From positions 28,328 to 92,327 of the IMG/VR virus record IMGVR_UViG_3300042402_003740: a stretch of DNA of 64,000 nt; one strand, written 5' to 3'. Each line of letters begins with the position of its first letter. Within the stretch, counting starts at the first letter, position 1. This DNA is from a virus. Below the pieces are notes generated by a model. The model was not told where the DNA came from and ran no database searches. It was given only the letters and a program-made list of their open reading frames with translations. Both the position numbers and the translations under genes were made by a program. Positions 16,639-38,138 of the stretch are shown here, piece by piece.

Positions 16639-17151
16639 TTAGGAGATGAGCAACCTTGCCCACCTCTCCCAGTCCTTCTTTCCCTCAAGAGCCGCATACA
16701 TTATTGCATTTCTTGTGGGAGCAACAGGTCTTTTATGTAGGTGCATTCCTGCTTCTTCGGGTGTGCGATTAGACTTTCTGCGGTTGCAGGGCTTGCAAGC
16801 CGATACGATGTTATCCCAAGAGTTGTCTCCTCCTCGGGATCGTGGCATCACATGGTCAAGGGATGCATTCTTTGAATTGAGATGGCATCCACAGTACTGG
16901 CAACGGTTGCCGTCCCTGCGGTACACATTCCGCTTTGATGGGGACTTTGAGCGGAAAAACGGAACCCGCACATATTCACGAAGAATAATGACCGATGGCA
17001 ACTCAAAGTCGCCACTGGTCGTTTTTATCTTATAGCAGTCGTTGTGGTTGTAGGGTTTTTCTGCTTTTTGGGCAAAAAGCAGTTTGACTGCCTTTACCCA
17101 ATCAATGATATCCAAGACTTCTTCCGAAGCGTTCAGTAGCAATACATCCAT
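16639..17151 (-). CDS. HNH endonuclease (McrA-like)
   Basis: VLLLNAS, RRDGNRCQYCG, SLDHVMPRSRGG, WDNIVSACKPCNRRK. Confidence 0.92.
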   Translation of the reverse strand: MDVLLLNASEEVLDIIDWVKAVKLLFAQKAEKPYNHNDCYKIKTTSGDFELPSVIILREYVRVPFFRSKSPSKRNVYRRDGNRCQYCGCHLNSKNASLDHVMPRSRGGDNSWDNIVSACKPCNRRKSNRTPEEAGMHLHKRPVAPTRNAIMYAALEGKKDWERWARLLIS

Positions 17152-17220
17152 AAGCACCTCTTTCAGAGTAGTTAGGGATACTCTATCTCAAGAACTACAT
17201 GAAGTCAAGATAATAGGTTT

Positions 17221-17577
17221 CTAGAATCTTCTTCTTTTTATTCTCTTGCCTATTCTTCGTGACCTTGCTGTTTTTCTGTTTATTGAGGCTTGCTTTCCTC
17301 TTCGCTTTCTAGCAGCCCTACGGAGTTTCATTTTCTTTCTACGAAGAACAGCGGCAGGAATACGACGAATTTTGCCTTTTACAAGAGTGTACCCTTTTCT
17401 TCCTGCGGTCTTGCCTCTCTTTATCTTTCCACCACGAACACGAATAATTCTTCGGACTCTCTCTAGAAGATACTCACAATCTGCCTCTGCTGCTTCTAGA
17501 GTATCTTCAATGATACATTCATCATCTTTTTGAAGAATTTCTGCCTGTTCGAAAATGAAACTCTTGTATGATTTCAT
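17221..17577 (-). CDS. Highly basic prohead core/internal protein-like
   Basis: MKSYKSFIFE leader, acidic N-part, very Arg/Lys-rich C-part after LLE. Confidence 0.65.
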   Translation of the reverse strand: MKSYKSFIFEQAEILQKDDECIIEDTLEAAEADCEYLLERVRRIIRVRGGKIKRGKTAGRKGYTLVKGKIRRIPAAVLRRKKMKLRRAARKRRGKQASINRKTARSRRIGKRIKRRRF

Positions 17578-19871
17578 CTTTTCAACCGTTTTTCCACTAT
17601 AGATGAAGCGAGTTTTGAGACTTGTTCATTCGTACTACTCTTCTTTCTCCACCCTCCACCTAGCCGTTTGTACAGTTTGGAAGCCCATGCGTTGGAATAT
17701 GCTGATGGGTGGACATCAAAGCCCTTGCCATCGTTTGGACCTGTGATGGTTTCTCCACCGTGTTCCATAGAGGATATGCGTCCCGCCACAAGGTCTTGCA
17801 CTTTGCCCCATAACTCTGGATTTGTTGGCTCGTTTTCTGATGCCTCTCCGAGGATATCGTTAACACTCTTGTCCGAACGCCACATCTGGCAAGACCAGTA
17901 TCGTGCCTTCCACTTTGGACCAACATCATCATCACAAGAGTGACGAGAACGGAAAGCCTTTAGACGGTCGGGATCATCACGCTTGATGCTCATGTTAGGA
18001 TCACCAAACCGAACTTTAACAATATTTCCATTGTCGTTCTTTGTATATACAGCAAACTTCTTCTTTTCTCCTGGTGTACGGAAAGGCTTGTTTAGTGGCT
18101 TGCCCTCACCGTCCTCTTCAGTTATTGTCAATCCTGTTTTATTGTCACGAAGAGCACGCTTTATCATGTCTTGTACAGTTTTGATATCAGCAGAGAACTC
18201 CGCAACAATTCCTCGTTGCTTGTTGTGTTCTTTTTTGTCTCCTGCTTTCTTTGCTTCGTAGGCTAACTTTTCGTGTTTCTTGATGAGGTCTATAAGGTCT
18301 TTGATTGCTTGTTTCATTTCATCAACGGAAACCTCTTTGCCCTCTTGAACCTTGTTAACACCTGTGGATACACGAACTGGCTCTGCTCCACCACCTGGTT
18401 TTCCTTCTCCTTTTTTGCCCATTCCTGCCTCCCTTTGTGCAGAACGCTTGCGACGAACAAACGATGCTATGCCTTCTTTGCCTAATTTTTGTGCTTTTTC
18501 GGGAGATAGGCAAGCGGCATATGCTTCCCCTTCATCCGCATCTCCGCATTTTCCTATTCTTTCACCCTTGCTGTTGTAACGATCCCAACCTGGTGTACCA
18601 TCGGCACTCTGTCGGAACCATTTACCTAGACCAGAGTCACGATAGGTTTCTTCAATCTCTTTTCCTCTGCAATGAGCACGCTGCGAGAAGCCTTTTGGAT
18701 TTTCACAATCAATAGAATCCTTGTACTTCTGTGACCACTTTTCATTCAGAACCTTGTCAACAATGGTCTTGACAGTTTCCACGACCGCAGGATTTTTAGG
18801 AGTTTTCTTTGTGGGTTTCTGCTGTGGTTTCTTCTCTACAGGTTTTCTGTCAGGATTTCTTCTTCTTGGTTGTTCTTGTGTTCCTATACCAGAGAATACC
18901 TTTGCGTCTTGTTCGCTCTTAAAATATCTTACGCCTTTGACATTACCCACAGATCCAGATTGGTTCTTTGCACCAAATCCTGTTTTTGTTTGCCAAACAT
19001 CGCCTGGTTTTGCTTGCATTGCAACCGTTGCCATTCCCTTTTTCTCTTTGTCTGTTGGAGTAGGCGCAGCCGCTCCTGTTGCATCTGTTGCTTTTTTGGT
19101 TTTAGTCGCCCCTGTTACACCTGTGGTTGGTGCAGCGGCTCCGGTACCACCTGAAGGCGATGTAGCCGCCCCTGTAACACCAGTTGTACCAGAGGTGGAT
19201 TTGTCGGTTGTAGGAGCGACAGGCTTGCCTTTACCTTTTTTAGCACCGCTAGATTCCTGTTCTGCTGCGGCCTTTGCCCGGTCACGCATTCCTACCCAAC
19301 CTTTGTCGTTTGCTTCAAGCCATGTTCTGCTCTCTTTTTGAGCGGTATCAACTCTCGCAAGGCGACGATCAAGTGCTTCGATTCTGTCGTAGTCTGGCAT
19401 GGACGATGATTCTGCTTCTGCTTTTCTTGCTTGAAGTCTTTGTCTTGATTGTTCCAAGAACATTGCATGGGCACGCTGATCGTATTTGTTTTCCGATGGC
19501 TTGAACTTTGCAGCATAGTCGGACTCTATGGACTCAAGTTTGCTCATGTTTTCGACGGCAATTTTGCGACGCTCTTTTTGCATATTAAAGCGTGCTTCCA
19601 GTTCTGTTGTGTCTCCCCCTGCTTGCTTTGTCAATTCTATGTCAGAACGAAGAGTCTCCATTTCTGAACGAATCTCTTTTTCATTCGATGCAGCGATCTC
19701 ATGTGCCATTGAGAATCTTTCACGGGCAGCACTAGGGCAATTCTTGTCCAATTGAACACCTGTGACTCTACCAGAGGCATCGCCAACAATCTTTTCTACG
19801 ATAGGCGTTCTTAATAGTCTGCCTACTAGAAACTCTATTTCCTCTATGAGTTCAAGAATTTGTGGTTTCAC
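17574..19871 (-). CDS. Multidomain putative internal head polyprotein
   Basis: Small modules common in T4-like phages (KWSQKYKDSIDCENPKGFSQRAHC; PLNKPFRTPGEKKKFAVY...ARYWSC; PTNPELW...PSAYSNAW) separated by (I/L/V)-x-E sites. Confidence 0.7.
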   Translation of the reverse strand: MKPQILELIEEIEFLVGRLLRTPIVEKIVGDASGRVTGVQLDKNCPSAARERFSMAHEIAASNEKEIRSEMETLRSDIELTKQAGGDTTELEARFNMQKERRKIAVENMSKLESIESDYAAKFKPSENKYDQRAHAMFLEQSRQRLQARKAEAESSSMPDYDRIEALDRRLARVDTAQKESRTWLEANDKGWVGMRDRAKAAAEQESSGAKKGKGKPVAPTTDKSTSGTTGVTGAATSPSGGTGAAAPTTGVTGATKTKKATDATGAAAPTPTDKEKKGMATVAMQAKPGDVWQTKTGFGAKNQSGSVGNVKGVRYFKSEQDAKVFSGIGTQEQPRRRNPDRKPVEKKPQQKPTKKTPKNPAVVETVKTIVDKVLNEKWSQKYKDSIDCENPKGFSQRAHCRGKEIEETYRDSGLGKWFRQSADGTPGWDRYNSKGERIGKCGDADEGEAYAACLSPEKAQKLGKEGIASFVRRKRSAQREAGMGKKGEGKPGGGAEPVRVSTGVNKVQEGKEVSVDEMKQAIKDLIDLIKKHEKLAYEAKKAGDKKEHNKQRGIVAEFSADIKTVQDMIKRALRDNKTGLTITEEDGEGKPLNKPFRTPGEKKKFAVYTKNDNGNIVKVRFGDPNMSIKRDDPDRLKAFRSRHSCDDDVGPKWKARYWSCQMWRSDKSVNDILGEASENEPTNPELWGKVQDLVAGRISSMEHGGETITGPNDGKGFDVHPSAYSNAWASKLYKRLGGGWRKKSSTNEQVSKLASSIVEKRLKR

Positions 19872-20122
19872 TGTCTTCCTTTCAAGTAGTTATGCACAGA
19901 GGAAAGATAATCTGCTGCCTTGGTGATCTTGGACTGTACCCATGCCTCAAGTTCCATATCTGAAGAGAGCATATCCGATATAATACTGGCATGGTCAGAG
20001 ATGTTCTTTAGTTCTCCCTTTGCCATATCTACTTCATCTCCAGGTGCATCACCTGTGGTGCTTGGATTTTCAGTCAGTATTTTGATAATTTGCTCTTGCA
20101 GCCGCTTGTTCTCATCTTGCAT
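19868..20122 (-). CDS. Conserved phage hypothetical protein
   Basis: DMAKGEL...LEAWVQSKITKAADYLSSV; preceded by CTAAATA and GGAG. Confidence 0.75.
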   Translation of the reverse strand: MQDENKRLQEQIIKILTENPSTTGDAPGDEVDMAKGELKNISDHASIISDMLSSDMELEAWVQSKITKAADYLSSVHNYLKGRQ

Positions 20123-20197
20123 AGGAAGCCCTCCGTGTATGTTTATTTAGGCTTTTTGCTAGTGAGGCGAGTTCTGTAATGTATTGGTGAAATGTTT

Positions 20198-20875
20198 TCA
20201 TACTGCTACTTGATCCATTAACCATTGCGTGATGATTCTATCATCGCCGCCAAATTCATCTTTATTGCAAAATATAGTCTTTAGCATTTTAACTGGCTTA
20301 TAGGAGATTATCTCTCTTTGATATGAAAATTGCCCTGCGAGTCTTGGTATGTTTGTATATTTGTCTGGATTCATAAAGAATGAGTTCCGAGAGCGTTCAA
20401 GGTCAGCAATAGCAAGAATATGATAAGACTCTTTGTTTCTGCGATACATCTTACCACCAAAATCTTCCACAAGTTTGGGAAGAGCAGCGAGGTCTACAGT
20501 CCATGAAGAAACTACATTCCTTATGTTCGTATATGTGCCTCCACGGACTATTCCCCTATTTCCGCTAACAGATATATTAAAGTTGCTCTTCATTATGTCC
20601 ACAGGTAAATCAGACATCAAGCGATATGCATATTTGTATGATTTTGGCACACGAAGAATATCAGCGTGTTTTCCTGCTTTTTGTGCTGCAATTAATTTTG
20701 GTAGTTCTTTAACCAAAGCAGCATCTCGCCCTCCAAAGTAGTGCTTTTGGAAAGCCTCCCAAGCATCTTCTTCATCCTTTGTGTTTTTCTCTGGTGGTTG
20801 TACAACATCTGTTCGCTCTGGAGCGAACAGCACATTTCCATAGTCTTCTTTCAACCATCGTTTAAGAGATTTCAT
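20198..20875 (-). CDS. Putative ADP-ribosyltransferase (R-S-E type, QxE) with capsid-targeting leader
   Basis: AYRLM...VSSWTVD...YQREII; leader MKSLKRWLKE. Confidence 0.55.
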   Translation of the reverse strand: MKSLKRWLKEDYGNVLFAPERTDVVQPPEKNTKDEEDAWEAFQKHYFGGRDAALVKELPKLIAAQKAGKHADILRVPKSYKYAYRLMSDLPVDIMKSNFNISVSGNRGIVRGGTYTNIRNVVSSWTVDLAALPKLVEDFGGKMYRRNKESYHILAIADLERSRNSFFMNPDKYTNIPRLAGQFSYQREIISYKPVKMLKTIFCNKDEFGGDDRIITQWLMDQVAV

Positions 20876-21905
20876 CTTTTTCCTTATTTTCGTGCATTAG
20901 GTTCGCATATTTTCCCTGATCTGCGATCCAGTCTTCAATGTCACCCATCTGCTGTCCTGCATCTTTCAGTTTTTTCTTCAACTTTTTCTTTGTCTTTGCT
21001 ATTATTCTAGAAACAGCAGATGCTCCACTTCCAACAAGTTTCTTTACACCCTTGACCAAAGCCGTACTCTCTTCCATAGAGTTTTGTCCATTTAGTGCTT
21101 TGGATAGACCATTAACAGCAGACTCATAATTATCAAGAGAAATAGAAGACTTTGCTCCTGCAAGTTTTAGTCTCCCCTGTACACGATATCCAACAGAACG
21201 ATAGGGCTTACCGCCAGATCCTGCTGGTCCTGGACGCATCTCTATGTCGATGTCTCCCTCAAGCATGGGAACCCCAAGACCCAACACATCATTGCCTGTA
21301 TGGAAGAGTCCCATTCCTCCAATTTGAATGTAATCCACATTCTTCTTCTGATAGTGTTGACGAATCCATTGTGCATTGTATCGTATCTTCTTGTTTGTTG
21401 GAATAATAAGTCCCGCTTTCTTGGCGGCTTCCCAATCCTTGTTCTTTACCTTTAGTGGGAAGCCCAATCCTTCTTCAGTATCGTAAAAAGGATCGCCAAG
21501 AGAAGAGAAGTGGTCCAGGAGTTTGTCAAGATACTTTACAACAGGGATAAGAGCATTAGAGAACATCTTCACATCTTCTTCTTTGATTTTGGTAAAATCA
21601 AAACGGTCTACAAGACGATCAGGGAATGACCCAACGAACCCGTCTGCATCTCGTTCATAGTTAATAGATGTACCGCCCATCTGTGCGTTTCCGTCCATCT
21701 TGATCTCCATGTTAATGGTTTGACCATTGATGGTAAAAGAAGCATCTCCGGATCCAGCAGATGAAAATGCTCCACCAGCACTCTCTATTCTCTTGAAATT
21801 AGGATACTCTTTGGCGAGTCTGTCCATGACAGCCTCTACCTTTTTCTCATAATTCACTCCACCCATTCCTACAGTTTCTGTGATATATTCTTTGAAAAGT
21901 TTCAT
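20862..21905 (-). CDS. PD-(D/E)XK nuclease-like protein with capsid-targeting leader
   Basis: YEKKV...GSGDASF...MEIK; leader MKLFKEYITE. Confidence 0.65.
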   Translation of the reverse strand: MKLFKEYITETVGMGGVNYEKKVEAVMDRLAKEYPNFKRIESAGGAFSSAGSGDASFTINGQTINMEIKMDGNAQMGGTSINYERDADGFVGSFPDRLVDRFDFTKIKEEDVKMFSNALIPVVKYLDKLLDHFSSLGDPFYDTEEGLGFPLKVKNKDWEAAKKAGLIIPTNKKIRYNAQWIRQHYQKKNVDYIQIGGMGLFHTGNDVLGLGVPMLEGDIDIEMRPGPAGSGGKPYRSVGYRVQGRLKLAGAKSSISLDNYESAVNGLSKALNGQNSMEESTALVKGVKKLVGSGASAVSRIIAKTKKKLKKKLKDAGQQMGDIEDWIADQGKYANLMHENKEKDEIS

Positions 21906-22041
21906 CTGTTGCTCCTGAATTGATGTTTATTCAGGAGTATGTAGGCTTGGGCTATTCTATAAAAGGAGGAGATTGCATACCATACCTCCCTGTATGTGTT
22001 TTCTAAATCCTATAATATCTAGGATTATTTGGATTTAGAGA

Positions 22042-22833
22042 TCATTTTATAAGATGAGAGAGTGTTTTCACCGCTGATTCGTAGTCATCAAGAGTGTGTT
22101 CCATTTGCACCATGCTGAACTGTATTCTTCCTTGTACTCTTAATCCAACACCACGAACCAAACCATATCTTGAAGGCTTTGATCCAGAAGCACCTGCTCT
22201 GATTTCAACACGAATATTTCCATTCAAAAGAGGAACAGGAAGATGTAGTGGATTTTTACCAGTATGAAACAATCCACATCCTCCTATCTGAATATAGTCT
22301 ACACCTTTTGAAAGATAGTGGTTTCTTATAAAACTAGCGTTTTCTTCAATAAAAGCATTTATTGGTTTTATTAGACCTCTAGAAGTAGCAATGCTCCATG
22401 CCTCTTTTCCCACTACCATTGGAAACCCTTCTATGTTCTGATGGACCTCAAATGGATAAGATGCTTTTAGTTCTCCAATTAGTTTTTCTATTGCGTCTGA
22501 TTTTGAATTCAAGACTGCACGATATATGTCTATCATTTCTGGTTCTATTCCCTCTGACTTTAGGAAAGAAAATCTTTCTTCCTTGGGAAGGGAAGAACGA
22601 TATCTCACAGAGGTTCCTCCCATCTGTGCCTTTTTGTTCATTTTTATTTCAATATAATATTTCTGCCCATTTATTTTTAGAGTGAGATCTCCTGATCCTG
22701 CACTAGAAAAACCTCCACCCACATCCTCTAGAACAGAAAGTTTTGGAAAGTTTTCTGACACCTTTTCACATACGGATCTAACATCTTTTTCATACGCTAA
22801 AGATTTTTGTGTTTGTTTTGTTTTCTCTTCCAT
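22042..22833 (-). CDS. PD-(D/E)XK nuclease-like protein, paralog of 20862..21905
   Basis: YEKDV...GSGDLTL...IEIKMNKKAQMGGTS; VDYIQIGG.GLFHTG shared with its neighbour. Confidence 0.65.
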   Translation of the reverse strand: MEEKTKQTQKSLAYEKDVRSVCEKVSENFPKLSVLEDVGGGFSSAGSGDLTLKINGQKYYIEIKMNKKAQMGGTSVRYRSSLPKEERFSFLKSEGIEPEMIDIYRAVLNSKSDAIEKLIGELKASYPFEVHQNIEGFPMVVGKEAWSIATSRGLIKPINAFIEENASFIRNHYLSKGVDYIQIGGCGLFHTGKNPLHLPVPLLNGNIRVEIRAGASGSKPSRYGLVRGVGLRVQGRIQFSMVQMEHTLDDYESAVKTLSHLIK

Positions 22834-22839
22834 TTTGTT

Positions 22840-24465
22840 TCATCCATTTGGATTTCCAAGCATTTGCTTTAGGTGTTTCTTTCCACCTATTGCCCGAACA
22901 TATTGTCCGTTGCCTTTCCACTCTATTTCTTTTCCACGAAGTACTCTACGAACAATAGACTCATCGTCTACGACTGGCGCACCACGGGATATAAGTATGT
23001 CGAGTATTTTTCCGCTTGCTTCGCCATAACTCCCCTGTGTCTTGAGAATGTCTACGGCTTTCTTCAGCACCTGTCGCTTGGCTTCGGCTCCACCATCGGA
23101 ACCAATTGTTGTCATCTTCTTGCCGAAAAGTGTGGTCTTTGAGAGTATAGCCGCATCCACATCATCGGGTTCGTCTGTGTCTATGACATCGGTGATATTG
23201 TTGTCCGCAGGAACAGAGTCGGCATTGGGAAAATCAGGATGACCACCGACAGGAGCATAGGCGGCATTGACGATATCAAAGATGTCTCGCTGAACATCAG
23301 TGTTCTTACGAACCTCTGCGGTTGCCAGAGATTTCCACTGGTCTTTATTTCGCACAACACCACGCCCTGCCTCTGCAATGAAAGTCTTGAATGAAACGAT
23401 GCTCTCGCCTATGACATCATAGATGCGGTAGCCCGGATACTTGCGCTTTAGTTCTGCAAATATTCTGTCAAGTCCACTACTAGAGAATTTTGCCCCGTCT
23501 TCGCTTGTGGCACTAATGACCTTGCGCTGGTGGTCAATTCTTCCCTGCACAACAGGAGTAACAGAGCGTTCAATCTTCAGCAACTCTGGAAAGACATCCT
23601 CATGGGTATCACGAACAGGGTCTTTTGGACTGCGTATTGTTACACGGGTCATGCCTTTTGATGGCTTTATTTCTGATGAAGCAATCCACAGTTCAGGAAT
23701 CTTGCCCCCTGTTGATACTCCCCATACCTTTTGACGGATACGCTCCATCTCCTGCTCTTGGTCTTTTTCATATGGTGAAACGGAGTGTCCGTAGTCAAGA
23801 TATGCACCCGCAGTATCAACCATGTCTCCAACAATATCAGGGTGCATTTTCAATACATCACGCACCACTTGTTCTGTTTCCCGTTTTGTCTTCTTTACTG
23901 TATCCCTAGTGGATTTCTTGCGGGCTTCGCTCTCACGACTCCATCCAAGCGCATCGGTAATAATATCCTTGTGATCGAATGCAAGGCGTGGAAGACGCTT
24001 CACAGAAATCCACTTTGCATCAACAGCATCATCCTGTCCACGCACACGCTGACCCATCTCTGCGGGAAGAGTGATGGTGTATGCATACGAGATTGACCAT
24101 GCTGTTTTCGTATCACGGGGATCTCGACCGCCTCCCTTGTATATTCCAACCGAACGCAATTTCGAGCGCATCTCTGCTGGAATCTTCAACCCTGTCTCTT
24201 CCTCTAGTTCACGGAGTGCAGCATCGGCAATGGATTCTGTCTGTCCTGCCTTCCACTCTCCTCCTGCCTTTGCGGTGGTGTTTACGAATCCACCTGGTAT
24301 TGCCCACTTTCCGCCTTCGGTCTTGCCAGGTTTACGCTTGATGAGCAGTACCTCAAGTCCTCCATCTTTTGCAGGACGGAATACCACAAGATCTACCGTT
24401 GGATTTGCTCCTGTATAGCGGTAGCCCTCTTTGGCTTCGGTGATGAAGTGTCTAAAGTCTATCAT
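22840..24465 (-). CDS. Nudix hydrolase (ADP-ribose pyrophosphatase/NrtR-like) fused to further domains
   Basis: Nudix box GGFV...ESIADAALRELEEETGL, GRDPR, DDAVDAKW, LAFDH; start MIDFRHFITE in ATGA overlap. Confidence 0.85.
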   Translation of the reverse strand: MIDFRHFITEAKEGYRYTGANPTVDLVVFRPAKDGGLEVLLIKRKPGKTEGGKWAIPGGFVNTTAKAGGEWKAGQTESIADAALRELEEETGLKIPAEMRSKLRSVGIYKGGGRDPRDTKTAWSISYAYTITLPAEMGQRVRGQDDAVDAKWISVKRLPRLAFDHKDIITDALGWSRESEARKKSTRDTVKKTKRETEQVVRDVLKMHPDIVGDMVDTAGAYLDYGHSVSPYEKDQEQEMERIRQKVWGVSTGGKIPELWIASSEIKPSKGMTRVTIRSPKDPVRDTHEDVFPELLKIERSVTPVVQGRIDHQRKVISATSEDGAKFSSSGLDRIFAELKRKYPGYRIYDVIGESIVSFKTFIAEAGRGVVRNKDQWKSLATAEVRKNTDVQRDIFDIVNAAYAPVGGHPDFPNADSVPADNNITDVIDTDEPDDVDAAILSKTTLFGKKMTTIGSDGGAEAKRQVLKKAVDILKTQGSYGEASGKILDILISRGAPVVDDESIVRRVLRGKEIEWKGNGQYVRAIGGKKHLKQMLGNPNG

Positions 24466-25019
24466 AGTGGGTTTCCTACCATCATCTTTGTCATCCGTTT
24501 TCCACCAGAGAAGGTTCGGGTATACCAGCCATCGCCTTCCCATCCATCCATCTTGCCGTGCCATTCGAACTCTACCTTTGGGTCACTCTTGACGATCTTC
24601 TCTACACGCTTTGGATCGTTGATAGGCTTTACTCCCATGCCCATGAGTATCTGTGCGGGTCTTCCTGATATTTCGGTATAGTTCCCACGAACAGAGAGTA
24701 TATCCTTTACCCGCTTCATCATCTGACGCTTCGCTTCCTGCGAACCGTCTGTTCCCATGCCGTGTATAATTCTACCTTTACCCCTTTGCTGTGTGAGTAT
24801 GACAGCATCAATGGCAGAATCATCATCGGTATCTATGACATCAACATCATCGGTTCCCACAGGATCAGAAGAGGTAAACTGCCTATGTCCCGTAGGAAAC
24901 TGTGAGTATACAGACTGTAGAATCTCTCCAATCTGCTTGGCAACATCGGTGTTTCCCTTTACCTCGTTGTTCGAAAGGGTAGACCATTTTCCCTTGATGT
25001 AGCCTTTAAAACTCTTCAT
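24462..25019 (-). CDS. Hypothetical protein, paralog of the C-terminal domain of the Nudix protein
   Basis: NTDV...DVIDTD...GTDGSQEAKRQ...MVGNP aligns with the last ~165 aa of 22840..24465. Confidence 0.75.
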   Translation of the reverse strand: MKSFKGYIKGKWSTLSNNEVKGNTDVAKQIGEILQSVYSQFPTGHRQFTSSDPVGTDDVDVIDTDDDSAIDAVILTQQRGKGRIIHGMGTDGSQEAKRQMMKRVKDILSVRGNYTEISGRPAQILMGMGVKPINDPKRVEKIVKSDPKVEFEWHGKMDGWEGDGWYTRTFSGGKRMTKMMVGNPL

Positions 25020-26422
25020 TCAATTCTTTCCATTTTTTCAGGCATATCCGAACCCAAGATGTCTTGTAGTTCATCAAATACCTCGTTGTACTTCTTTACA
25101 AGTTCAACCCATGTTTGGTTTACATATGCCTTTGCAGGAGTTTTTGTACCGATCTTTACAACCCGTGTAACTTCTGTTTCTCTTCCAACAGAGTTTTTTG
25201 TTCCTAATTTGTTTGCAAACCATTCAGAAAAGATACAGCCATCATCTGTAGGCATGGTGTAAACAATGGGTACATTCATGCCCTCCATTATTTCTTTGTA
25301 TGCATAATCCATTGTTCTAAGTATGGAGCGGACGATACTCTTTTTCTCGGATTTTGATGCGGCTTTGAAACCATTTGCCTGTTTGAGAATGAACTTAAGT
25401 TCTGGTGATGGGAGTACCGATACCGATCCACCAAACAAACCTTCTTGTGTTGCGAAATTGGCTGCTACTGCTGGTTCTGCTGCCCAACTCTGTATGGCTC
25501 TGTTCGCCTTGTACTCTACAGGAACACCAACATATGTTTTTGCCTTCTTTCCACTACCGATTTCCAATAGGTCTTTGGATTTTAGCAATCTATCCAAGGG
25601 TAGGATTCTTTTTGCAACACTACCGTCAACTCCTATTCCACGCCATACCACACTAACAGTTGGTTCGAATTCGTTTGGATAGTCTTTGACACATTTCTTG
25701 ATAAACTCGAAATCTGCAACCATCTTGTTGTCGGCGTGTCCATCACTGTACATTGCATCTCCACCTACCCAGTCGCTAACACTCATCTCTATTTCGTCTT
25801 CTCTTTTGGTGTTCTGTTCACGGCTTCTGTATTTTCCCTGCTCTATTCCAAATACTAGACGCTGAAACACCTTTGTGCATGGGTTTTTGTTGAATTCTTT
25901 TTCCTTCTCTCTTTTCTCTTTGATTTTACCCTTTTGGCCTTCAAGTTTCTCAATCGAAGTCTCTATGGACTTTCTCATCTTTGTATTCTCTTTTTGCCAC
26001 TTGGCTAGACCTGTCTTTTTTATCTGATTGACTCTGCTTGCAGGAAAGTCCAGAAGAGATCCAGACCTGTCGTCAAATCCCAACTGGCGCACATTATCCT
26101 TAAAGTTGCCAATAAGCGGATAGACTGCTGGTTCCAATCCAATTCCTTCATCAAAGAACAGTCTCACGAGGTCTAGTCCTGACTTCATTACACCTCTAAA
26201 CCACTTACGCTCTTCCTCCTTGGTCATGTCAGAGAACCAAGGAGGAAGATCTCCAATCTTTTTGGATGCCTCTTGGAGTTCTCCAATGGCTTCACGAAGA
26301 GAGCCGCTCCGCTCCCCTGGCGGTTCGCAACCGCAACGGGCAATGGCATCCCGCACGGATTCTCCCGTGTCGGTATCCACTCCACGAAGAACATCAAGAA
26401 CTATGGCTCTCCATGACCGCAT
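25016..26422 (-). CDS. Putative ADP-ribosyltransferase (R-S-E type, ExE)
   Basis: VWRGI...IQSWAAEPAVAANFA...RETEV. Confidence 0.6.
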   Translation of the reverse strand: MRSWRAIVLDVLRGVDTDTGESVRDAIARCGCEPPGERSGSLREAIGELQEASKKIGDLPPWFSDMTKEEERKWFRGVMKSGLDLVRLFFDEGIGLEPAVYPLIGNFKDNVRQLGFDDRSGSLLDFPASRVNQIKKTGLAKWQKENTKMRKSIETSIEKLEGQKGKIKEKREKEKEFNKNPCTKVFQRLVFGIEQGKYRSREQNTKREDEIEMSVSDWVGGDAMYSDGHADNKMVADFEFIKKCVKDYPNEFEPTVSVVWRGIGVDGSVAKRILPLDRLLKSKDLLEIGSGKKAKTYVGVPVEYKANRAIQSWAAEPAVAANFATQEGLFGGSVSVLPSPELKFILKQANGFKAASKSEKKSIVRSILRTMDYAYKEIMEGMNVPIVYTMPTDDGCIFSEWFANKLGTKNSVGRETEVTRVVKIGTKTPAKAYVNQTWVELVKKYNEVFDELQDILGSDMPEKMERIE

Positions 26423-26425
26423 GGG

Positions 26426-26815
26426 TTATCCTCCGTAGGCTACGCCCCGCACAAAGAAGTGGTCTTCGTGACTGGTGAATCCAAAGCACTCCCGTGCATA
26501 CTCTATGACAACTGCTGGATCAAACTTCTTGCAGGAGTACAGGTCGAGGGTAATGAAATGGGTGGGTTCAATCGAATGGATCTGTATGCCACTCTCTATG
26601 AGGGGAACCCATCCGCTCACTCCTGCCTTCTCGGGATACACTTCAACACCGTTTTGTGTTGGTGCATGGATAACCACAGGCTGACTCATGCGTGTCATGC
26701 CGATTCGGTCCACCAGACGCTCAAGAAAGCGATAGGTCAACTCCATGTCATCGGCTGTGCCGGGCTTGCACCCGTACATATCAAGGTAATATGAATACCC
26801 GAAAGGTTTTTTCAT
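26426..26815 (-). CDS. speD: S-adenosylmethionine decarboxylase proenzyme
   Basis: LDMYGC, GVSGWVPLIESGIQIHS (E-S pyruvoyl site), LDLYSCKKFD. Confidence 0.85.
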   Translation of the reverse strand: MKKPFGYSYYLDMYGCKPGTADDMELTYRFLERLVDRIGMTRMSQPVVIHAPTQNGVEVYPEKAGVSGWVPLIESGIQIHSIEPTHFITLDLYSCKKFDPAVVIEYARECFGFTSHEDHFFVRGVAYGG

Positions 26816-27645
26816 TCGAGTGGACTCCCATCCATGTAGAGGTTTCTACAGACCCAGCCGTAGTCGCCTTCTTCCATCTTCTTCTGGGCAGTGTTCATTC
26901 TGTCTTTCATCATTCCGAGACGCTTGTCCTGTAGGAACTTGATGTGGTCTTCAACCATTTTGATGCTTTTCTTCCAACTGTTCATGCATTGGATTGCCTC
27001 ACGCTTTTCGGATGCGCTTTCGTGCATAGTCTCCTCGTATCCCATAAAGGGTCTTGGCTTCTTGTTGCAATCCTTGCCTTTGCATGGCTTTGGCTTTGGT
27101 TTGCCCTTTCCACCCTTCATAGGCTCGACCACGGCATCGTCACCGTACATACGGGAATCTGTTTCGTGGAGAGGGGCTTCTGATTCTTTCAGGGAGTTTC
27201 CTTCCTGAACGGCACGGTATGCCCTTGCCAGTGATTCCAAAAGGTCGGCTTCGGTGCGGTCGGTCTGTACAGAATTTGCAGGAGCGGGTGGAACCCCGCC
27301 TCCAAGAATGGTCTGCACCATCTGTGCTGTTTCGCTCTTTGCTATGCGCTCAAATTCGTTGTTTGTCTCCATCGCTCTACCTTCCTTTATTCCTAGTTTA
27401 TTTAGTGCTGCTTCCCGTTGTCCTATCCCTGCGAGTGCCTCTCTTGGCGACTTGAAGTGTCCTACAGGGACCTGTGAATCGTCTGGAACTCCACGCCCAC
27501 TGGTGTCGCCCTTGTAGAGCAGGAACGCTCCAGGACTAGGCTCATGGAGAAAGTACCAGTTCTTCCCAGAACGGGTCTTCCAGCCCATAACAACACCCAT
27601 GCCCTGGTTTAGTCCTGCAATAACTGATTTTTGCCATTTATTCAT
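26812..27645 (-). CDS. Hypothetical protein (possible second in-frame start at 27372)
   Basis: 277 aa ORF with internal CTAAATA and AAGGAAGG before ATG GAG ACA. Confidence 0.65.
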   Translation of the reverse strand: MNKWQKSVIAGLNQGMGVVMGWKTRSGKNWYFLHEPSPGAFLLYKGDTSGRGVPDDSQVPVGHFKSPREALAGIGQREAALNKLGIKEGRAMETNNEFERIAKSETAQMVQTILGGGVPPAPANSVQTDRTEADLLESLARAYRAVQEGNSLKESEAPLHETDSRMYGDDAVVEPMKGGKGKPKPKPCKGKDCNKKPRPFMGYEETMHESASEKREAIQCMNSWKKSIKMVEDHIKFLQDKRLGMMKDRMNTAQKKMEEGDYGWVCRNLYMDGSPLE

Positions 27646-27646
27646 T

Positions 27647-28621
27647 TCATTTTACTCCGTATTGCTTGTCTATTGATGCCCATTCACCCTTGCAGAAGTC
27701 TACGACTGCCTGTATGTAGGCGGTAATCTCGTTCGGGGTGATCTTGCCCATAGAGGGGTTGAAGCCGCTGCCTTTGCCCAGGCGACCCACACGCTCCATC
27801 TTGCCGATGCTCTTCTTGAAAGCCCTGGCAATGGCATCAACACGGGCAGGATCGAATTGCTCAGAAGTGCCGTCGTTCCTGCCGTAGTACTGGTTTGACC
27901 CGTTCTGTAGACCCGAGAGCACGGACATGACCATCTCTAGGCGGCTCATTGCCATGTCGCCGCTCTTCCAGTCTTTCAAGACCTCTTGTGCATAGACAAG
28001 CCACTCCTTGCGGTTCCTGAAACTCTCTGGCATCATGCGAAAGTGCTTCTGTGCCATTGTCTCGGGCTTGCCTGGTTTCTTCTCGTTTCCCCCAGCCTCG
28101 TCCAGTTCGACCGATTCTCCTACAAACTTCTTGCCCCGACCGCTCTTGAGGAATCCGTGTAGCCATGCCTGTGGATCTTTGCTGCCTGGATAGGTCTGTG
28201 GCAGTGGTTTACCGTGCAGTTCTCCGGTGATGCCCCCAAAGTAGTCTTCGTATTCCATAAAACCCACCTTTTTGCCACCCTTCAGGATGTCATAGTGGGT
28301 TGTGGACTGTGTGCCGTCCTCTGTTTTTTTCTTTTCCACCTTGGTTTTCTTTAGAGAATACTCCCCGACACCTTCGTGCAACCCAAGGGATTCCTTCACC
28401 ACCTGTATCCCCTTGTAACGGCTCCGCACCAATTCTGCACCTGTAAGAACATCCACAAGATCCTCATAGTGGTAGTCTGTTGCAACAGCCTCGCTTGAAT
28501 AGGGTCCCGCTACCTTCATCTTGCCACCAGACTTGTACACGGCATAGTACCCTTCAGGGTCAACCTTGCCTATTCCTCTGGCGGCTTCGTCTAATCTTCT
28601 AATATCCTTGAATCGCTTCAT
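27647..28621 (-). CDS. Putative internal head polyprotein
   Basis: MKRFKDIRRLDE leader; internal VKE/LHE/VGESVELDE linkers. Confidence 0.65.
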   Translation of the reverse strand: MKRFKDIRRLDEAARGIGKVDPEGYYAVYKSGGKMKVAGPYSSEAVATDYHYEDLVDVLTGAELVRSRYKGIQVVKESLGLHEGVGEYSLKKTKVEKKKTEDGTQSTTHYDILKGGKKVGFMEYEDYFGGITGELHGKPLPQTYPGSKDPQAWLHGFLKSGRGKKFVGESVELDEAGGNEKKPGKPETMAQKHFRMMPESFRNRKEWLVYAQEVLKDWKSGDMAMSRLEMVMSVLSGLQNGSNQYYGRNDGTSEQFDPARVDAIARAFKKSIGKMERVGRLGKGSGFNPSMGKITPNEITAYIQAVVDFCKGEWASIDKQYGVK

Positions 28622-29487
28622 CTCTGCTTCTCCTCTAAATATTGGCTGTTGTAATCTTCGAATTTACGCAGTACCGCCTCTCTGCCGTCAAAAACCTGTA
28701 GTTTTTGCTCTGGTGTAAGCAGCCGCCAGGCACCTGGTGACATTAGTGTTTCCCTACCATCGGTTGTTTTTTCTGCTAGTGGAACATAGCAGCGGCACTG
28801 TATTGGGGTCTTCTCTAATCTTACAATTTCAGACTCTGCGGGGTTTCCAAAGTGGACAAGATTAAGGCTTTCGTCCGGGGATATCTTGTACTCTAGAACA
28901 AAGTGTATGCGTTGCTGTTTCATCTGGTCAGACCACCAACTGTCTGTGACCCCTGTAAAGTCGCCTGTTGCAAATCCTAGTGCCACTCTCTGTTCTGTCG
29001 TCCATGACTGTGCAACCGACCGGGCCTCGTAGCGTAGGGTTCCCTCTGCACACTGTAGTGGTCTTTTGCCCCTGTACAGGGTTGTGATTCTTTCAAATTT
29101 GAATGCATTGGCAAATCTCTTCACTCCAAACCCTTCGCCACGGTACACATTCCCGCTGTATCGTAGCCACGATCCAGTCTTTCCACACCCCTGTATCATT
29201 CTCTTTATACGAAGAACAAGATCTTCAGGGGTGTAGTCCCGTTGAGCCTTGAATCCCATCATCCACTTGTTCATGGTGTCTGCAAGCCCTGCAATCTCTT
29301 CGTTCTTTGCCTCTTTTGCTGCCCTCTCTATCCATTGCCAGCCTTTGCCTCTAAAATGGTCAATAGGAGAACCCTGAAACAGAGGAGGATTTGACCCGCC
29401 CAAGAGATGACACAACCCACGGGAGAAATCTATCTCTCCTCCACTCTTTGACTCTAGTATCTCTATGAATTGGCGGTAGCGTTTCAT
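28618..29487 (-). CDS. Putative ADP-ribosyltransferase (R-S-E type, ExE) with capsid-targeting leader
   Basis: VYRGE...AQSWTTEQRVALGFA...AESEIV; leader MKRYRQFIEILE. Confidence 0.62.
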   Translation of the reverse strand: MKRYRQFIEILESKSGGEIDFSRGLCHLLGGSNPPLFQGSPIDHFRGKGWQWIERAAKEAKNEEIAGLADTMNKWMMGFKAQRDYTPEDLVLRIKRMIQGCGKTGSWLRYSGNVYRGEGFGVKRFANAFKFERITTLYRGKRPLQCAEGTLRYEARSVAQSWTTEQRVALGFATGDFTGVTDSWWSDQMKQQRIHFVLEYKISPDESLNLVHFGNPAESEIVRLEKTPIQCRCYVPLAEKTTDGRETLMSPGAWRLLTPEQKLQVFDGREAVLRKFEDYNSQYLEEKQR

Positions 29488-29488
29488 A

Positions 29489-29938
29489 TTAGTCGTCTAC
29501 AGGTTCGTCGTGACCAGAGTGTGGATTGTACCGGGTCAGAGGGGTTCTGCGCCGTGACCGCTCACGCTCACGCTCGTCTCTTTCCCGCTCCCGCTGCCCC
29601 CGATCCCGCTCCTCGGCATCACGGCGGCTCTGGGCTTCACGCCCTGGTCGCTTCTTTCCCTCTACCCAATCGCTTGCATCGCTCCAGTTATCGAAATAGC
29701 GGAATTCGTCCTCCCACCGTGCACGGTATCGGGTTCCCCCACCTGTCTCTACCTCGTCAACCGAGCCGCTTCTCTGCCTTTCCTTCCCCTGGCGGTCTGC
29801 TGACTCCTCACCAGAGGTCTGTGCCCTCTTTGCCTTTTCGATTCCTAACTTGCGTCCAACCCGTATGGCTGTGTCACGGACTATGCCCTCTTTCAGAGTC
29901 TTGTCTACAGTTCTTCTAAATTCGGTGTAGTCTTTCAT
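29489..29938 (-). CDS. Charged hypothetical protein with capsid-targeting-like leader
   Basis: MKDYTEFRR...LKE; AGGAG SD; RE-rich tail. Confidence 0.6.
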   Translation of the reverse strand: MKDYTEFRRTVDKTLKEGIVRDTAIRVGRKLGIEKAKRAQTSGEESADRQGKERQRSGSVDEVETGGGTRYRARWEDEFRYFDNWSDASDWVEGKKRPGREAQSRRDAEERDRGQRERERDERERERSRRRTPLTRYNPHSGHDEPVDD

Positions 29939-30062
29939 CCCGATCTCCTGTGTGTATTGCAGCCTTTTCCTATATGTATGAATACCCATTTTCTCCTCCA
30001 GAAACGGTTAGGGTTCCATTAGGAGGGTTAAAAAAGGCTTAAAAAAGGGGGTTGAGCGTGCA

Positions 30063-30374
30063 CTAACGGGGGGAAGGGGGATTGAATCCACCAGTACCGC
30101 TGTTGTATTCGATTCCTTCAAGTGATTTGCGGAATTCAACGGCTCTTTTCTCGGATTCGATCATCGGTGGTGGTTTGGGTGGGACGAATGGGAATCCCAT
30201 GCGGGTGAGTGCGGGAGGCATACGGACACGGGGACGCTGCTGCCCCCAGCCACCCCAGACAGCGGGAGGCGGGGGATTCATATTAATAGGAAGATGGGGC
30301 TGCACTGCACCATTAAGATGCGCCTTCCGAGCCTCTTCACTCTGTAGCCATTCGTTGTATTTACTGCGGTCCAC
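30063..30374 (-). CDS. Pro-rich hypothetical protein
   Basis: GTG start overlapping the stop of the FmdB-like gene. Confidence 0.45.
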   Translation of the reverse strand: MDRSKYNEWLQSEEARKAHLNGAVQPHLPINMNPPPPAVWGGWGQQRPRVRMPPALTRMGFPFVPPKPPPMIESEKRAVEFRKSLEGIEYNSGTGGFNPPSPR

Positions 30375-30657
30375 TTCGGGTTCCCCTTTGCGAAAGCGAG
30401 CGGTCAATGTTCTCACGGACTCGGGGGTTGTACTTTCCGAGTTTGGAGCGCATGGCTTCCATTCTCTCTTTAAAAGCACCCGAGGGTTTAACGCTGCCAT
30501 CCACACCCATAGTGGGGGAGTGTGACCACCCACGGACCACTTGGGGCTTGCCGCATTGGGGGCAGGGTTCACCGCAGGGCTTCTCTCGGTTTGCTATGGT
30601 TTGGATATCGTCCCACTGGTGGGCGCAATGGCGGCACTCGTATTCATAATTAGGCAT
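30361..30657 (-). CDS. FmdB-family zinc-ribbon protein
   Basis: MPNYEYECRHC...PCPQCG; GAGGAG SD. Confidence 0.85.
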   Translation of the reverse strand: MPNYEYECRHCAHQWDDIQTIANREKPCGEPCPQCGKPQVVRGWSHSPTMGVDGSVKPSGAFKERMEAMRSKLGKYNPRVRENIDRSLSQRGTRSGPQ

Positions 30658-30892
30658 AGGCTTTTGCTCCTCTACGGGTATATAGTGGGGAATGGGGAGG
30701 GGGTAAATTCTCCAGAGTGGGGGGTAAATTGTGGGGGGCAGGGTATTCATAGGTTTTGTGTAGTGTGTGCAGGCTGAACTATTCCGAATGGGATCGAAAG
30801 GGGCAAATGCGGGTGGTTTTGAACCAAAATCACCAGATTCTGGTAAAATCAGCCAAAATTCTTCATTTTTACCATTTCAGGCGTCCTGGGGT

Positions 30893-30937
30893 GACCAGGC
30901 ACGCCCGGTGAGCCCGGTGAGCCCGGTGAACCTGGTC
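30893..30937. repeat. (GCCCGGTGA)x3 inside inverted repeat GACCAGG/CCTGGTC
   Basis: Read directly; lies in the divergent intergenic region. Confidence 0.85.
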
Positions 30938-31094
30938 CAGCGATTTTCGAAATATTGGAATTTCGGCTAAAGTCTGCATTCCGTCCAGTCGATACCAGTA
31001 GAGCGAAGGCAAGAGATAGGGGAGGAATTCCACAGAATCTCGGATACGGATATCCGTGATTACCTGACAGAACCCTAACAGGAGGGGCATTGGG

Positions 31095-31154
31095 GGTCCG
31101 ATAATATCGCCCGCCCCGCCGTTTGCTGTAAGTCCTTATAAGACAGAGATTTAC
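31095..31154 (+). promoter_or_regulatory. Compound element: GGTCCGATAATA-GC box plus 27-bp imperfect palindrome
   Basis: GGTCCGATAATATCGCCCGCCCCGCC then GTAAGTCCTT-N7-AGAGATTTAC. Confidence 0.7.
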
Positions 31155-31173
31155 GCTGTTTTAGGGGTTGGGC

Positions 31174-31201
31174 TTGCATCCTGCGCCCGTTCGGGTATAC
31201 T
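31174..31201 (+). promoter_or_regulatory. Early sigma70-type promoter
   Basis: TTGCAT-N16-TATACT. Confidence 0.7.
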
Positions 31202-31283
31202 TGTGGGACGGGAATTCTACGCCCAGAGGGCATAATTCCTAAAAACTGCCGAATTCTGACTTTTTCTCAAAAAGACCAAAACC

Positions 31284-33629: not shown

Positions 33630-33642
33630 AAGGAGGAATCGC

Positions 33643-34098
33643 ATGGCGCAATCAGGACAGGCTCTGTTGGAGAACGCACGGGTGCAAGAGTTCCTGTCCC
33701 TGGTGCGTTCACAGTGCCGCAAGTGTAATGTCAAATTCGTGCTTGCCGATGCGGAGTTTGTCGGCAGCAAGAAGCAAGGGGAGCAACTGCTTGGGTTCTT
33801 TTGGGAACCCTCGCTACACCGCAGGGCACCAGGCGAACTGCGTGTGGCAACAAAGAACCTGCCTGTAAGCGAGTGGATCGTTACCCTCGCACATGAGTAC
33901 GCACACTTTCTACAGTGGTTCCGAGATGATCCTGTTTACCATTGTGACTCTTATCTGGAGATGGAGATCGCAACAGAGCGTGAAGCATTCGAGATCCTGA
34001 AGCGTTTCAAGATCCCCATCAACTACGAAACGGCGAAGCGCAAGTCAAAGAAGTACATTGCGAAGATTCGTCGTGAGGAAAAGGAAAACACCCTATGA
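33643..34098 (+). CDS. HExxH zinc metallopeptidase (ImmA/IrrE-like)
   Basis: TLAHEYAHFLQW...MEIATEREA. Confidence 0.7.
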   Translation: MAQSGQALLENARVQEFLSLVRSQCRKCNVKFVLADAEFVGSKKQGEQLLGFFWEPSLHRRAPGELRVATKNLPVSEWIVTLAHEYAHFLQWFRDDPVYHCDSYLEMEIATEREAFEILKRFKIPINYETAKRKSKKYIAKIRREEKENTL

Positions 34099-34523
34099 AC
34101 AAGCGCAACATCACCATCATTACTCTCATCGTCCTCGGCATCCTCGCCTCGCTTGCTGCTGCGGTTCCCCCGCCCTCGGGCTACGACACAGATCGGATTC
34201 TCCATGCCATTCGTCTGACAGAGACTGGTGGTGAGCGTGACCCGGCGAATGCAGTGGGCGACGGTGGACGGGCGATTGGACCTTTCCAGATCCACCGTGG
34301 TTACTGGCAGGATGCACTTGAGCATGACCCGAGCATTGGTGGCGTGTATGCCGATTGCAAGAACGAAGAGTATGCTCGTCGGGTCGTGCTGGCGTATATG
34401 TCCCGCTACTGCAAGGTGTGGACGGATGAGCGTGTTGCTCGTATCCACAATGGTGGTCCGGCGGGATGGAAGCGAGAGTCAACGCTAGGGTATTGGTCAA
34501 AGGTGCAGCGGCATCTTGACTAA
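34095..34523 (+). CDS. Secreted lysozyme-fold muramidase (i-type/destabilase-like)
   Basis: Signal/TM N-terminus; IRLTETGG, GPFQIHRGYWQDA, ARIHNGGP, GYWSKV. Confidence 0.75.
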   Translation: MNKRNITIITLIVLGILASLAAAVPPPSGYDTDRILHAIRLTETGGERDPANAVGDGGRAIGPFQIHRGYWQDALEHDPSIGGVYADCKNEEYARRVVLAYMSRYCKVWTDERVARIHNGGPAGWKRESTLGYWSKVQRHLD

Positions 34524-34540
34524 ACAGGGCGTGGCGGGGG

Positions 34541-34600
34541 GGCGGGGGCTGCCGTTATTATCGGACCCTTGGCGTAAGTGCTTGTAGTGTAAGGGTTTGC
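34541..34600. promoter_or_regulatory. Compound element copy 2 (box inverted)
   Basis: GGTCCGATAATAACGGCAGCCCCCGCC on minus; GTAAGTGCTT-N7-AAGGGTTTGC. Confidence 0.7.
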
Positions 34601-34607
34601 GTGGGAC

Positions 34608-34636
34608 TTGACATAATCGCCCTTTTTTGGGACAAT
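34608..34636 (+). promoter_or_regulatory. Early promoter, probably leaderless mRNA
   Basis: TTGACA-N17-GACAAT; ATG 7 nt downstream; no SD. Confidence 0.65.
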
Positions 34637-34643
34637 CTTCGAT

Positions 34644-35831: not shown

Positions 35832-35855
35832 TCGTTGACAAATGGGGGCGGCAGC

Positions 35856-35927
35856 GTCCGATAATAACTGCCGCCCCCGCACCCCTCTGAAAGAATTCTT
35901 GTAAATCCTTATCCCGAAAGGGTTTAC
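35856..35927 (+). promoter_or_regulatory. Compound element copy 3
   Basis: GTCCGATAATAACTGCCGCCCCCGC; GTAAATCCTT-N7-AAGGGTTTAC. Confidence 0.7.
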
Positions 35928-35932
35928 AACGC

Positions 35933-35960
35933 TTGTACTGGTTTCCGATTGTGGTATACT
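35933..35960 (+). promoter_or_regulatory. Early promoter
   Basis: TTGTAC-N16-TATACT with extended TG. Confidence 0.65.
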
Positions 35961-37317: not shown

Positions 37318-37346
37318 TCGGTGAGTGTGTGAGTGTGTGAACCCGT

Positions 37347-38131: not shown

Positions 38132-38138
38132 AAATCCA

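Follow-up and report, generated by a model that had tools for sequence, protein, structure and literature searches.

We analyzed a 64,000-nucleotide stretch of viral DNA (hereafter the window), which comprises bases 28328-92327 of a 92,327-bp IMG/VR viral contig (IMGVR_UViG_3300042402_003740) with a CheckV completeness of about 43%. From position 29938 down to 17221 of the window, the minus strand carries a block of 14 tightly coupled genes with ATGA overlaps, several of which begin with a short leader resembling the capsid targeting sequence (CTS) of the phage T4 internal proteins (IPs), and a further gene with such a leader starts at 58329. An earlier inspection of the letters of this DNA (the sequence-only reading) had listed leader-like N-termini here, and every one was found where it had been placed, on the minus strand or, at 58329, on the plus strand. 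The genes and features are listed below in window positions, with protein lengths in amino acids (aa) and with leader grades that are defined in the following paragraphs.

17221-17577, minus strand: 118-aa protein with the strong leader MKSYKSFIFE, an acidic stretch, and then an extremely basic tail (residues 61-118, pI about 12)
17574-19871, minus strand: 765-aa protein of several modules; start codon GTG, [IL]xE at residues 7-11
19868-20122, minus strand: 84-aa acidic conserved module with no aromatic leader (L8 and E10 only)
20144-20150, minus strand: late-promoter-like word CTAAATA, 28 nt upstream of the 84-aa gene
20198-20875, minus strand: 225-aa protein with the weak leader MKSLKRWLKE
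20862-21905, minus strand: 347-aa protein with the strong leader MKLFKEYITE, a PD-(D/E)XK nuclease-like domain, and a C-terminal long helix
21938-21944, minus strand: late-promoter-like word CTACATA, 39 nt upstream of the 347-aa gene
22042-22833, minus strand: 263-aa leaderless paralog (42% identity) of the 347-aa nuclease-like protein
22840-24465, minus strand: 541-aa Nudix-domain protein opening with the strong leader MIDFRHFITE, with an insert of 160 residues and a C-terminal domain
23371-23400, minus strand: internal leader IVSFKTFIAE, opening the C-terminal domain of the 541-aa Nudix protein
24462-25019, minus strand: 185-aa protein whose start, MKSFKGYIKG, has the targeting positions and lacks E10
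25016-26422, minus strand: 468-aa protein with the non-canonical N-terminus MRSWRAIVLD; residues 206-326 are homologous to the ADP-ribosyltransferase (ART) family (VWRG, QSWAAE)
26426-26815, minus strand: 129-aa S-adenosylmethionine (SAM) decarboxylase family protein, leaderless
26812-27645, minus strand: 277-aa protein with no N-terminal leader and with the internal junction PLHE|TDSRMYGDD
27647-28621, minus strand: 324-aa protein with the variant leader MKRFKDIRRLDE
28618-29487, minus strand: 289-aa protein, predicted to have the ART fold, with the leader MKRYRQFIEILE (ILE at residues 10-12)
29489-29938, minus strand: 149-aa R/E-rich protein with the weak leader MKDYTEF...LKE17
58329-58916, plus strand: 195-aa SAM-lyase-family protein (PF23780) with the strong leader MDTFKSFISE

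Using the strict pattern [MVLI]-x-x-[FY]-[KRQT]-x-[FYW]-I-x-E in six frames over the whole contig, we found 5 matches in 92 kb, compared with a mean of 0.14 in 100 shuffles. Four of the five lie at start codons (17577, 21905, 24465, and 58329), each an ATG with translational coupling or a ribosome binding site, and the fifth is internal (23400). When a position-specific scoring matrix (PSSM) made from the five strict matches was applied to 114 open reading frames (ORFs), the best eight N-terminal scores belonged to seven genes of the block and the 58329 gene. Furthermore, [IL]xE with its Glu at residue 10-12 occurred in 8 of the 14 block genes, versus 5 of 100 other ORFs (Fisher p = 5e-6). On the strength of the shuffle and Fisher statistics, a chance origin of the leaders was rejected.

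A leader was graded strong if it had an aromatic residue at 4 and 7, Ile at 8, and Glu at 10, and this held for MKSYKSFIFE (17577), MKLFKEYITE (21905), MIDFRHFITE (24465), MDTFKSFISE (58329), and the internal IVSFKTFIAE (23400). MKSFKGYIKG (25019, without E10) and MKRYRQFIEILE (29487, with E12) were graded intermediate, and MKSLKRWLKE (20875), MKRFKDIRRLDE (28621), and MKDYTEF (29938) weak. Position by position, Phe or Tyr at 4 together with Phe, Tyr, or Trp at 7 is present at 17577, 21905, 24465, 25019, 29487, 29938, and 58329 and in the internal copy, with deviations at 20875 (L4/W7) and 28621 (F4/I7), while Ile or Leu at 8 with Glu exactly at 10 is present at 17577, 21905, 24465, 58329, and 20875 and in the internal copy. 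The Glu has moved to residue 12 at 28621 and 29487 and to residue 17 at 29938, and is missing at 25019. The sequence-only reading had assigned a leader to most genes of the block, and this was overstated: against four strong, two intermediate, and three weak leaders stand 6 of the 14 block genes with none, namely those for the 765-, 84-, 263-, 468-, 129-, and 277-aa proteins.

Such a tally raises the question of whether the block and its weaker leaders were over-read, that is, whether four or five genes are truly tagged and the others are ordinary early or accessory genes with a common MK start. The intermediate and weak leaders do have lower PSSM scores (12, 6, 4, and 2, down from about 24), an MK start is common on the contig, and the 225-aa protein has no homology to the ART family. 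Nevertheless, ranks 5 to 8 of the N-terminal scores are still genes of the block, the [IL]xE test gives its p value of 5e-6 independently of the aromatic positions, and homologs of the 289-aa protein carry clearer leaders, such as MISFKKYIFE and MKTFRQILE. We therefore regard over-reading as quite unlikely.

The leaders were compared with the T4 CTS. The first ten residues of T4 IPIII, MKTYQEFIAE, suffice for prohead loading, with residues 4 and 7 serving targeting and residues 8 and 10 serving processing by gp21 (PMC9026906 section 2.6); reviews trace the CTS of IPI, IPII, and IPIII to Mullaney and Black 1996 (PMC9026906, PMC3012670). Among T-even internal proteins the cargo is diverse and only the CTS is conserved (PMC3012670). 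In the source phage, positions 4, 7, 8, and 10 of the leader are likewise conserved and positions 3, 6, and 9 vary, and most proteins of the block have no pairwise similarity. Both systems thus have a 10-residue N-terminal propeptide with aromatic residues at 4 and 7, I8, and E10, set in front of unrelated proteins at a variable locus. The source phage differs from T4 in that its cargo consists mostly of enzymes and multi-module proteins rather than small basic inhibitors, that several more genes are tagged, that internal leaders and LxE junctions suggest polyproteins, and that it belongs to a marine lineage near Kyanoviridae and is known here from its genes alone. The basic tail of the 118-aa protein recalls the T4 internal proteins, which are basic, and makes this protein a candidate DNA-binding internal protein.

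To place the leader among environmental phages, we scanned IMG/VR for DNA encoding exactly MKxFKxFIxE and obtained more than 120 stretches, a lower bound, and the control was the same pattern with residues 8 and 10 swapped. Among the matches listed, 89% were located at ORF starts, heading at least 53 unrelated cargo clusters; the swapped control gave 46 stretches and 5 clusters. The control loci (L164-L208) include a 115-aa family starting MKTFKEFENIDE, with I-D-E at residues 10-12, which may be a leader variant two residues longer and not a true negative. At least 30 loci carry 2-7 leader genes, with seven in 14 kb at L051, and one environmental leader reads MKTYQEFISE, a single residue away from the T4 MKTYQEFIAE. 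Since the leader loci carry T4-type gp43, gp41, gp61, gp32, and gp59 homologous to those of the contig, the trait belongs to a clade of marine T4-like phages. In one complete relative (G003, 168.5 kb, with terminal repeats), gp21, gp22, and gp23 are followed 6-9 kb downstream by three leader genes, one of which matches an ART family. The degenerate leader pattern had no match in cyanophage S-SCSM1, because the single leader of that phage reads F-M-S-E; S-SCSM1 has one leader gene and no array. The protein concerned belongs to a leader-bearing 106-aa family, MK[ST]FKQF[IM]SESVNI[AS]GDF.GNLY, found in S-SCSM1 (L124:6001-6321) and about 40 IMG/VR loci; in 137 cyanophage records its gene maps to the structural module, immediately upstream of the gene for the large terminase subunit, and the family is annotated as hypothetical only.

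The codons of the conserved residues vary synonymously (at position 8, ATA 61, ATT 43, and ATC 25), and therefore selection acts on the peptide; conservation of the leader at the DNA level was ruled out by the same variation. This bears on an alternative in which the conserved start is kept as nucleic acid, either as a region for translation initiation or coupling or as a recombination linker for swapping cassettes, with no role for the peptide. The genes of the block are indeed tightly coupled through ATGA overlaps, cassettes are exchanged between relatives, and T-even CTS-coding DNA is thought to assist recombination at the IP locus. Against it, synonymous variation is free at every conserved residue, positions 3, 6, and 9 change while 4, 7, 8, and 10 are fixed, the peptide is also conserved internally, where there is no initiation, and extended DNA identity across families is missing, with L002-window alignments patchy at 68-88%. 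Altogether, a nucleic-acid role is very improbable.

Comparison with relatives also revealed how the modules are joined. At the same locus and between the same flanking genes, L002 carries other cassettes; 11 of its gene starts there look like leaders, and 7 of these satisfy the PSSM/regex filter. There, MKTYSQLIAE|TDSRMYGDD aligns with the internal PLHE|TDSRMYGDD of the 277-aa protein; MKTFKEFIEE|SWSQKYK of L094 aligns with VLNE|KWSQKYK inside the 765-aa protein; and MKTFKSFIVE| of a stand-alone L046 protein aligns with the internal SFKTFIAE| of the Nudix protein, a leader kept in L002 as IVLFKDFLVE. Because leader boundaries in one phage are internal LxE junctions in another, some of these proteins look like polyproteins, and this interchangeability makes the junction resemble a protease site. 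Two modules of the 765-aa protein are stand-alone leader-bearing proteins in other phages (L094, and a 238-aa protein of L085 corresponding to residues 585-666), and a third recurs C-terminally in P0012, a homolog of the 347-aa family. The 84-aa module is found elsewhere inside leader-bearing proteins or ahead of the nuclease domain via PIEE|S (P0015). Within the 347-aa family (35 members), close relatives begin MKxFKE[YF]..ET, distant ones begin M-E-N-W-R-x-F-x-x-E, and others begin exactly at the predicted mature end, M-T-V-G-S-G-G; one member has the 84-aa protein fused in front (PIEE|S), and another ends in a module of the 765-aa protein. In the 541-aa protein, the 160-residue insert is missing from the L002 relative, and the C-terminal domain is paralogous to the 185-aa gene. 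Residues 61-175 of the 324-aa protein are paralogous to a module of an 892-aa cytidylyltransferase polyprotein, and both have an ESVELDE|A linker.

The 892-aa cytidylyltransferase-like protein is encoded just upstream of the window (G000 22687-25365, minus strand), and L-[NDK]-E|[GAS] linkers connect all its modules. Next to it is the gene for a 417-aa ligase-like protein with a K-x-D-G motif (G000 25492-26745, minus strand), which starts MLSFTKFGETLLLQE. Homologs of both have clear leaders in many environmental phages (locus L148), and conservation of the ligase-like gene extends to 466 cyanophage records.

Virion mass spectrometry of the T4-like cyanophage S-CREM2 identified six non-structural proteins, including a SAM hydrolase, a kinase, and a cytidylyltransferase (PMC10665884 Table 3). 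The N-termini of these three enzymes read MKDFDSFLEE (gp6, SAM hydrolase), VKRFDAFLTE (gp14, kinase), and MKNFSSFLTE (gp154, cytidylyltransferase). In the 175-kb S-CREM2 genome, KxFxxFLxE has 3 matches, which are the starts of gp6, gp14, and gp154 and nothing else, and the control has 0. A small virion protein, gp13, begins MKDLHSFLTE, with L at 4, and gp12 has LRFASFMAE at residues 17-25, while about 25 neighboring non-virion genes lack the motif except for one 55-aa ORF. The S-CREM2 paper mentions no leader or targeting signal (PMC10665884). The SAM hydrolase and the cytidylyltransferase are of the same kinds as the SAM-lyase-family gene and the neighboring cytidylyltransferase of the source phage. 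Homologs of the SAM-lyase-family protein at six environmental loci all have the leader, followed by SSLSRIKSK.DKGG, a stretch that is also found behind the leader of S-CREM2 gp6. Between the two phages, the leader differs as F-L-x-E in S-CREM2 versus F-I-x-E in the source phage, and the arrangement as five leader genes scattered over the genome versus a 13-kb block.

As the S-CREM2 proteome gives presence in the virion and not position within it, the leader could instead be a docking or recognition tag for a partner outside the capsid interior (tail or baseplate, an enzyme modifying the N-terminus, or a phage-made compartment), and the block would then be the set of its clients. Such a tag would have to account for a match to the T4 CTS at four mapped positions, extending to MKTYQEFISE in one relative, and for an E10 boundary that acts like a protease junction, equivalent to the internal LxE sites; moreover, no conserved partner enzyme gene lies beside the leader genes across loci. 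This alternative appeared unlikely to us. The central point of the sequence-only reading, a T4-type CTS on a modular set of probably packaged proteins, is the best explanation we can offer, as the conserved residues are the T4 CTS determinants (PMC9026906), the phage is T4-like, and enzymes with such leaders are in S-CREM2 virions. Its suggestion of an undescribed system did not stand: this is the T4 CTS/internal-protein system in another lineage, and T-even IP loci were already known to be diverse behind the CTS (PMC3012670).

Next, we evaluated the folds and catalytic motifs of the cargo, for which the sequence-only reading had proposed Nudix, PD-(D/E)XK, and three ART domains. The Nudix domain of the 541-aa protein was confirmed by PF00293 (6e-16, 59 bits versus a cut-off of 21), and the Nudix box is legible in the translation as E-x7-R-E-L-E-E-E-T-G-L. 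For the 289-aa protein, a word-indexed homolog search returned only the protein itself, and its relatives needed a full HMMER scan, which gave 18 homologs, every one with a leader-like start; in this family Y-R116-G and Q-S161-W are invariant, and E218 and E220 occur in at least 90%. The model of this protein has a predicted local distance difference test score (pLDDT) of 87.9, and the Foldseek and VIA lists are nearly all ARTs, with Vis at Z 7.2 over 138-145 residues and further TreX/TreTu, pertussis S1, cholera A1, and C3. Since the Z score is middling, the ART call rests on the consistency of the lists together with the motifs, and these support the prediction of an ADP-ribosyltransferase fold for the 289-aa protein. 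Profile comparison supports the 468-aa protein as a putative ART paralog, since it shares the R and S motifs with the 289-aa family (hhalign probability 90%). The third ART call, for the 225-aa protein, was dropped after a profile comparison without a significant match (probability 0.3%).

The model of the 347-aa protein (pLDDT 81.8) had HhaI endonuclease as its top match (Z 9.9, 183 residues, root-mean-square deviation 4.1), followed by Hjc, I-Ssp6803I, RecU, MspI, and HinP1I, and D54, E67, and K69 are invariant in 35 sequences. These data support a PD-(D/E)XK fold for the 347/263-aa pair, which is predicted to be an HhaI-like nuclease. In the AlphaFold model of the 347-aa protein, residues 1-11 are disordered and precede the folded domain. 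Phmmer against PDB sequences yielded only chance-level matches for the 289-, 468-, 225-, and 347-aa proteins, and the ESM Atlas offered only a weak lead for the 289-aa protein (DRAT, 0.90) and no helpful match for the 185-aa protein. The SAM decarboxylase encoded in the block is probably a metabolic gene and not cargo.

The predicted ART invites comparison with T4 Alt, which is packaged in the head, injected, and processed by gp21 (PMC9026906). The 289-aa protein resembles Alt in its putative R-S-E-type ART fold and its N-terminal segment, predicted to be cleavable, and a putative ART paralog lies nearby in the source phage, just as T4 possesses ModA and ModB. The two differ in that there is no detectable sequence similarity (no Pfam or PHROG match), in length (289 versus about 680 aa), and in the serine motif, which is Q-S-W here. 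A further parallel is offered by the ejection or inner-body proteins of the phiKZ-like giants (201phi2-1 and SPN3US; PMC9026906, PMC5694885). These phages have many head-internal proteins, paralog families, and precursors that a gp21-related protease cleaves at several places, each time behind the Glu of a short motif. They differ in belonging to another phage group, in having no T4-type 10-residue N-terminal CTS, and in their long and varied propeptides.

The contig itself encodes a gp32 that is 53-55% identical to gp32 of cyanophages P-TIM40, S-BM3, and S-PM2, and PHROGs matches on it include gp59, the gp26 baseplate hub, a tail-tube-like protein, the gp2 DNA end protector, and CobT/CobS, a pair frequent among marine myoviruses. 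Judged by these genes, the source phage is a member of the T4 superfamily. Neither megablast with the 13-kb block nor tblastn with the 347-, 289-, and 185-aa proteins had a match among 50,697 GenBank phage records, and most proteins of the block had nothing in Pfam or PHROGs. PF03420, the T4 prohead protease family (Peptidase_S77), had no match on the 92-kb contig or on the L002 and L003 contigs; it was found in the clade relatives G003 and G005 and in S-CREM2. As gp21 belongs to the T4 core genome (PMC9026906), a gp21-type protease was assumed for the source phage by that rule.

We reasoned that the region 17221-29938, together with the gene at 58329, is quite probably a variable locus in which a marine T4-like phage encodes proteins of the head interior. 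Each cargo protein or polyprotein module would be headed by a CTS of the T4 IPIII type of about 10 residues, M-K-x-[FY]-x-x-[FY]-[IL]-x-E, whose residues 4 and 7 would dock the cargo on the scaffolding core during prohead assembly. A gp21-type prohead protease would then cut after the Glu of [IL]-x-E, both at the leader and at internal LxE junctions, freeing the mature proteins in the head, and these would exit with the DNA at infection and act ahead of any phage gene expression. The cargo would comprise an ADP-ribosyltransferase as counterpart of T4 Alt and its paralog, a Nudix hydrolase, a restriction-endonuclease-like nuclease, a SAM-lyase-family enzyme, a very basic protein of DNA-binding type, and several further modules. 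Overall, the leader array is genuine and not due to chance, and its best reading is the T4 CTS/internal-protein system in a marine lineage, with a cargo that is expanded, enzymatic, and partly polyprotein.

Several observations weigh against this assignment. The block is mixed, as besides its six leaderless genes and three weak leaders it includes one ordinary-looking metabolic gene, that for the SAM decarboxylase. Protease, scaffold, and capsid genes are missing from the 92-kb fragment, itself about 43% complete, and from 2 close relatives. Late-promoter words are few: late-promoter-like elements had been said to precede several genes, and CTAAATA at 20150 and CTACATA at 21944 were found, these being the only two in the region, while the T4 word TATAAATA does not occur on the contig; in scans for sigma-70 promoters and terminators, the block scored no better than shuffled sequence. 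The sole leader-bearing protein of S-SCSM1 (106 aa) has no virion annotation, and two small leader-like S-CREM2 ORFs were undetected in virions. Packaging, cleavage, and injection in the source phage are inferred, as are the roles of the individual cargo proteins, and removal of the leader is likewise a prediction for marine phages in general.

T4-like myoviruses are among the most abundant viruses of the sea. In the literature search, the CTS was not tied to cyanophages or marine T4-like phages, a weak absence given that most subscription journals lay outside the search. If the leader works as in T4, packaged cargo would be predictable from genomes and metagenomes alone, the puzzling enzymes of cyanophage virion proteomes would have a loading mechanism, and the locus would be a catalogue of first-strike effector candidates (protein ADP-ribosylation, nucleotide/signal hydrolysis, SAM depletion, and DNA cleavage). 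Their turnover from one close relative to the next would then point to an arms race with host defenses, and natural leader variants would be at hand for protein-delivery tools on T4-like capsids. We give about an even chance to a broader proposal, that marine T4-like phages as a group have a large, fast-changing "injectome" legible from sequence through the leader or an internal LxE junction. Any protein or polyprotein module so tagged would enter the head, be set free by the prohead protease, and be delivered in finished form along with the DNA; among such cargo would be ADP-ribosyltransferases, Nudix hydrolases, restriction-like nucleases, SAM-degrading enzymes, RNA-ligase-like enzymes, and nucleotidyltransferases. 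If true, this would explain the "non-structural" enzymes of cyanophage virion proteomes and would make the first-minute takeover and anti-defense of the ocean's most abundant myoviruses directly testable.

Other features were noted around the block. An HNH endonuclease gene (PF14279, 1e-16; 16639-17157, minus strand) adjoins it, occupies the same position in L002, and may contribute to cassette turnover. GC content climbs from 0.37-0.46 to 0.55-0.59 over about 16 kb (30000-46000), and the shift starts within the block at about 26 kb; an independent contig, L003 (97.7% identical), covers 11589-31733, and therefore the transition is no assembly chimera at that end. Two giant ORFs, at 1-7457 (plus strand; 2869 aa including the part that precedes the window) and 10473-15068 (plus strand; 1531 aa), had no match in Pfam or PHROGs. 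The SAM-lyase-family gene, distant from the block, sits between tRNA-Leu and tRNA-Pro in a tRNA array (58228-58996), and the whole window has 16 tRNA genes, four of which (7843-8169) lie beside a transfer-messenger RNA gene identified by ARAGORN (8173-8500, minus strand; tag peptide ANTVRLAA).

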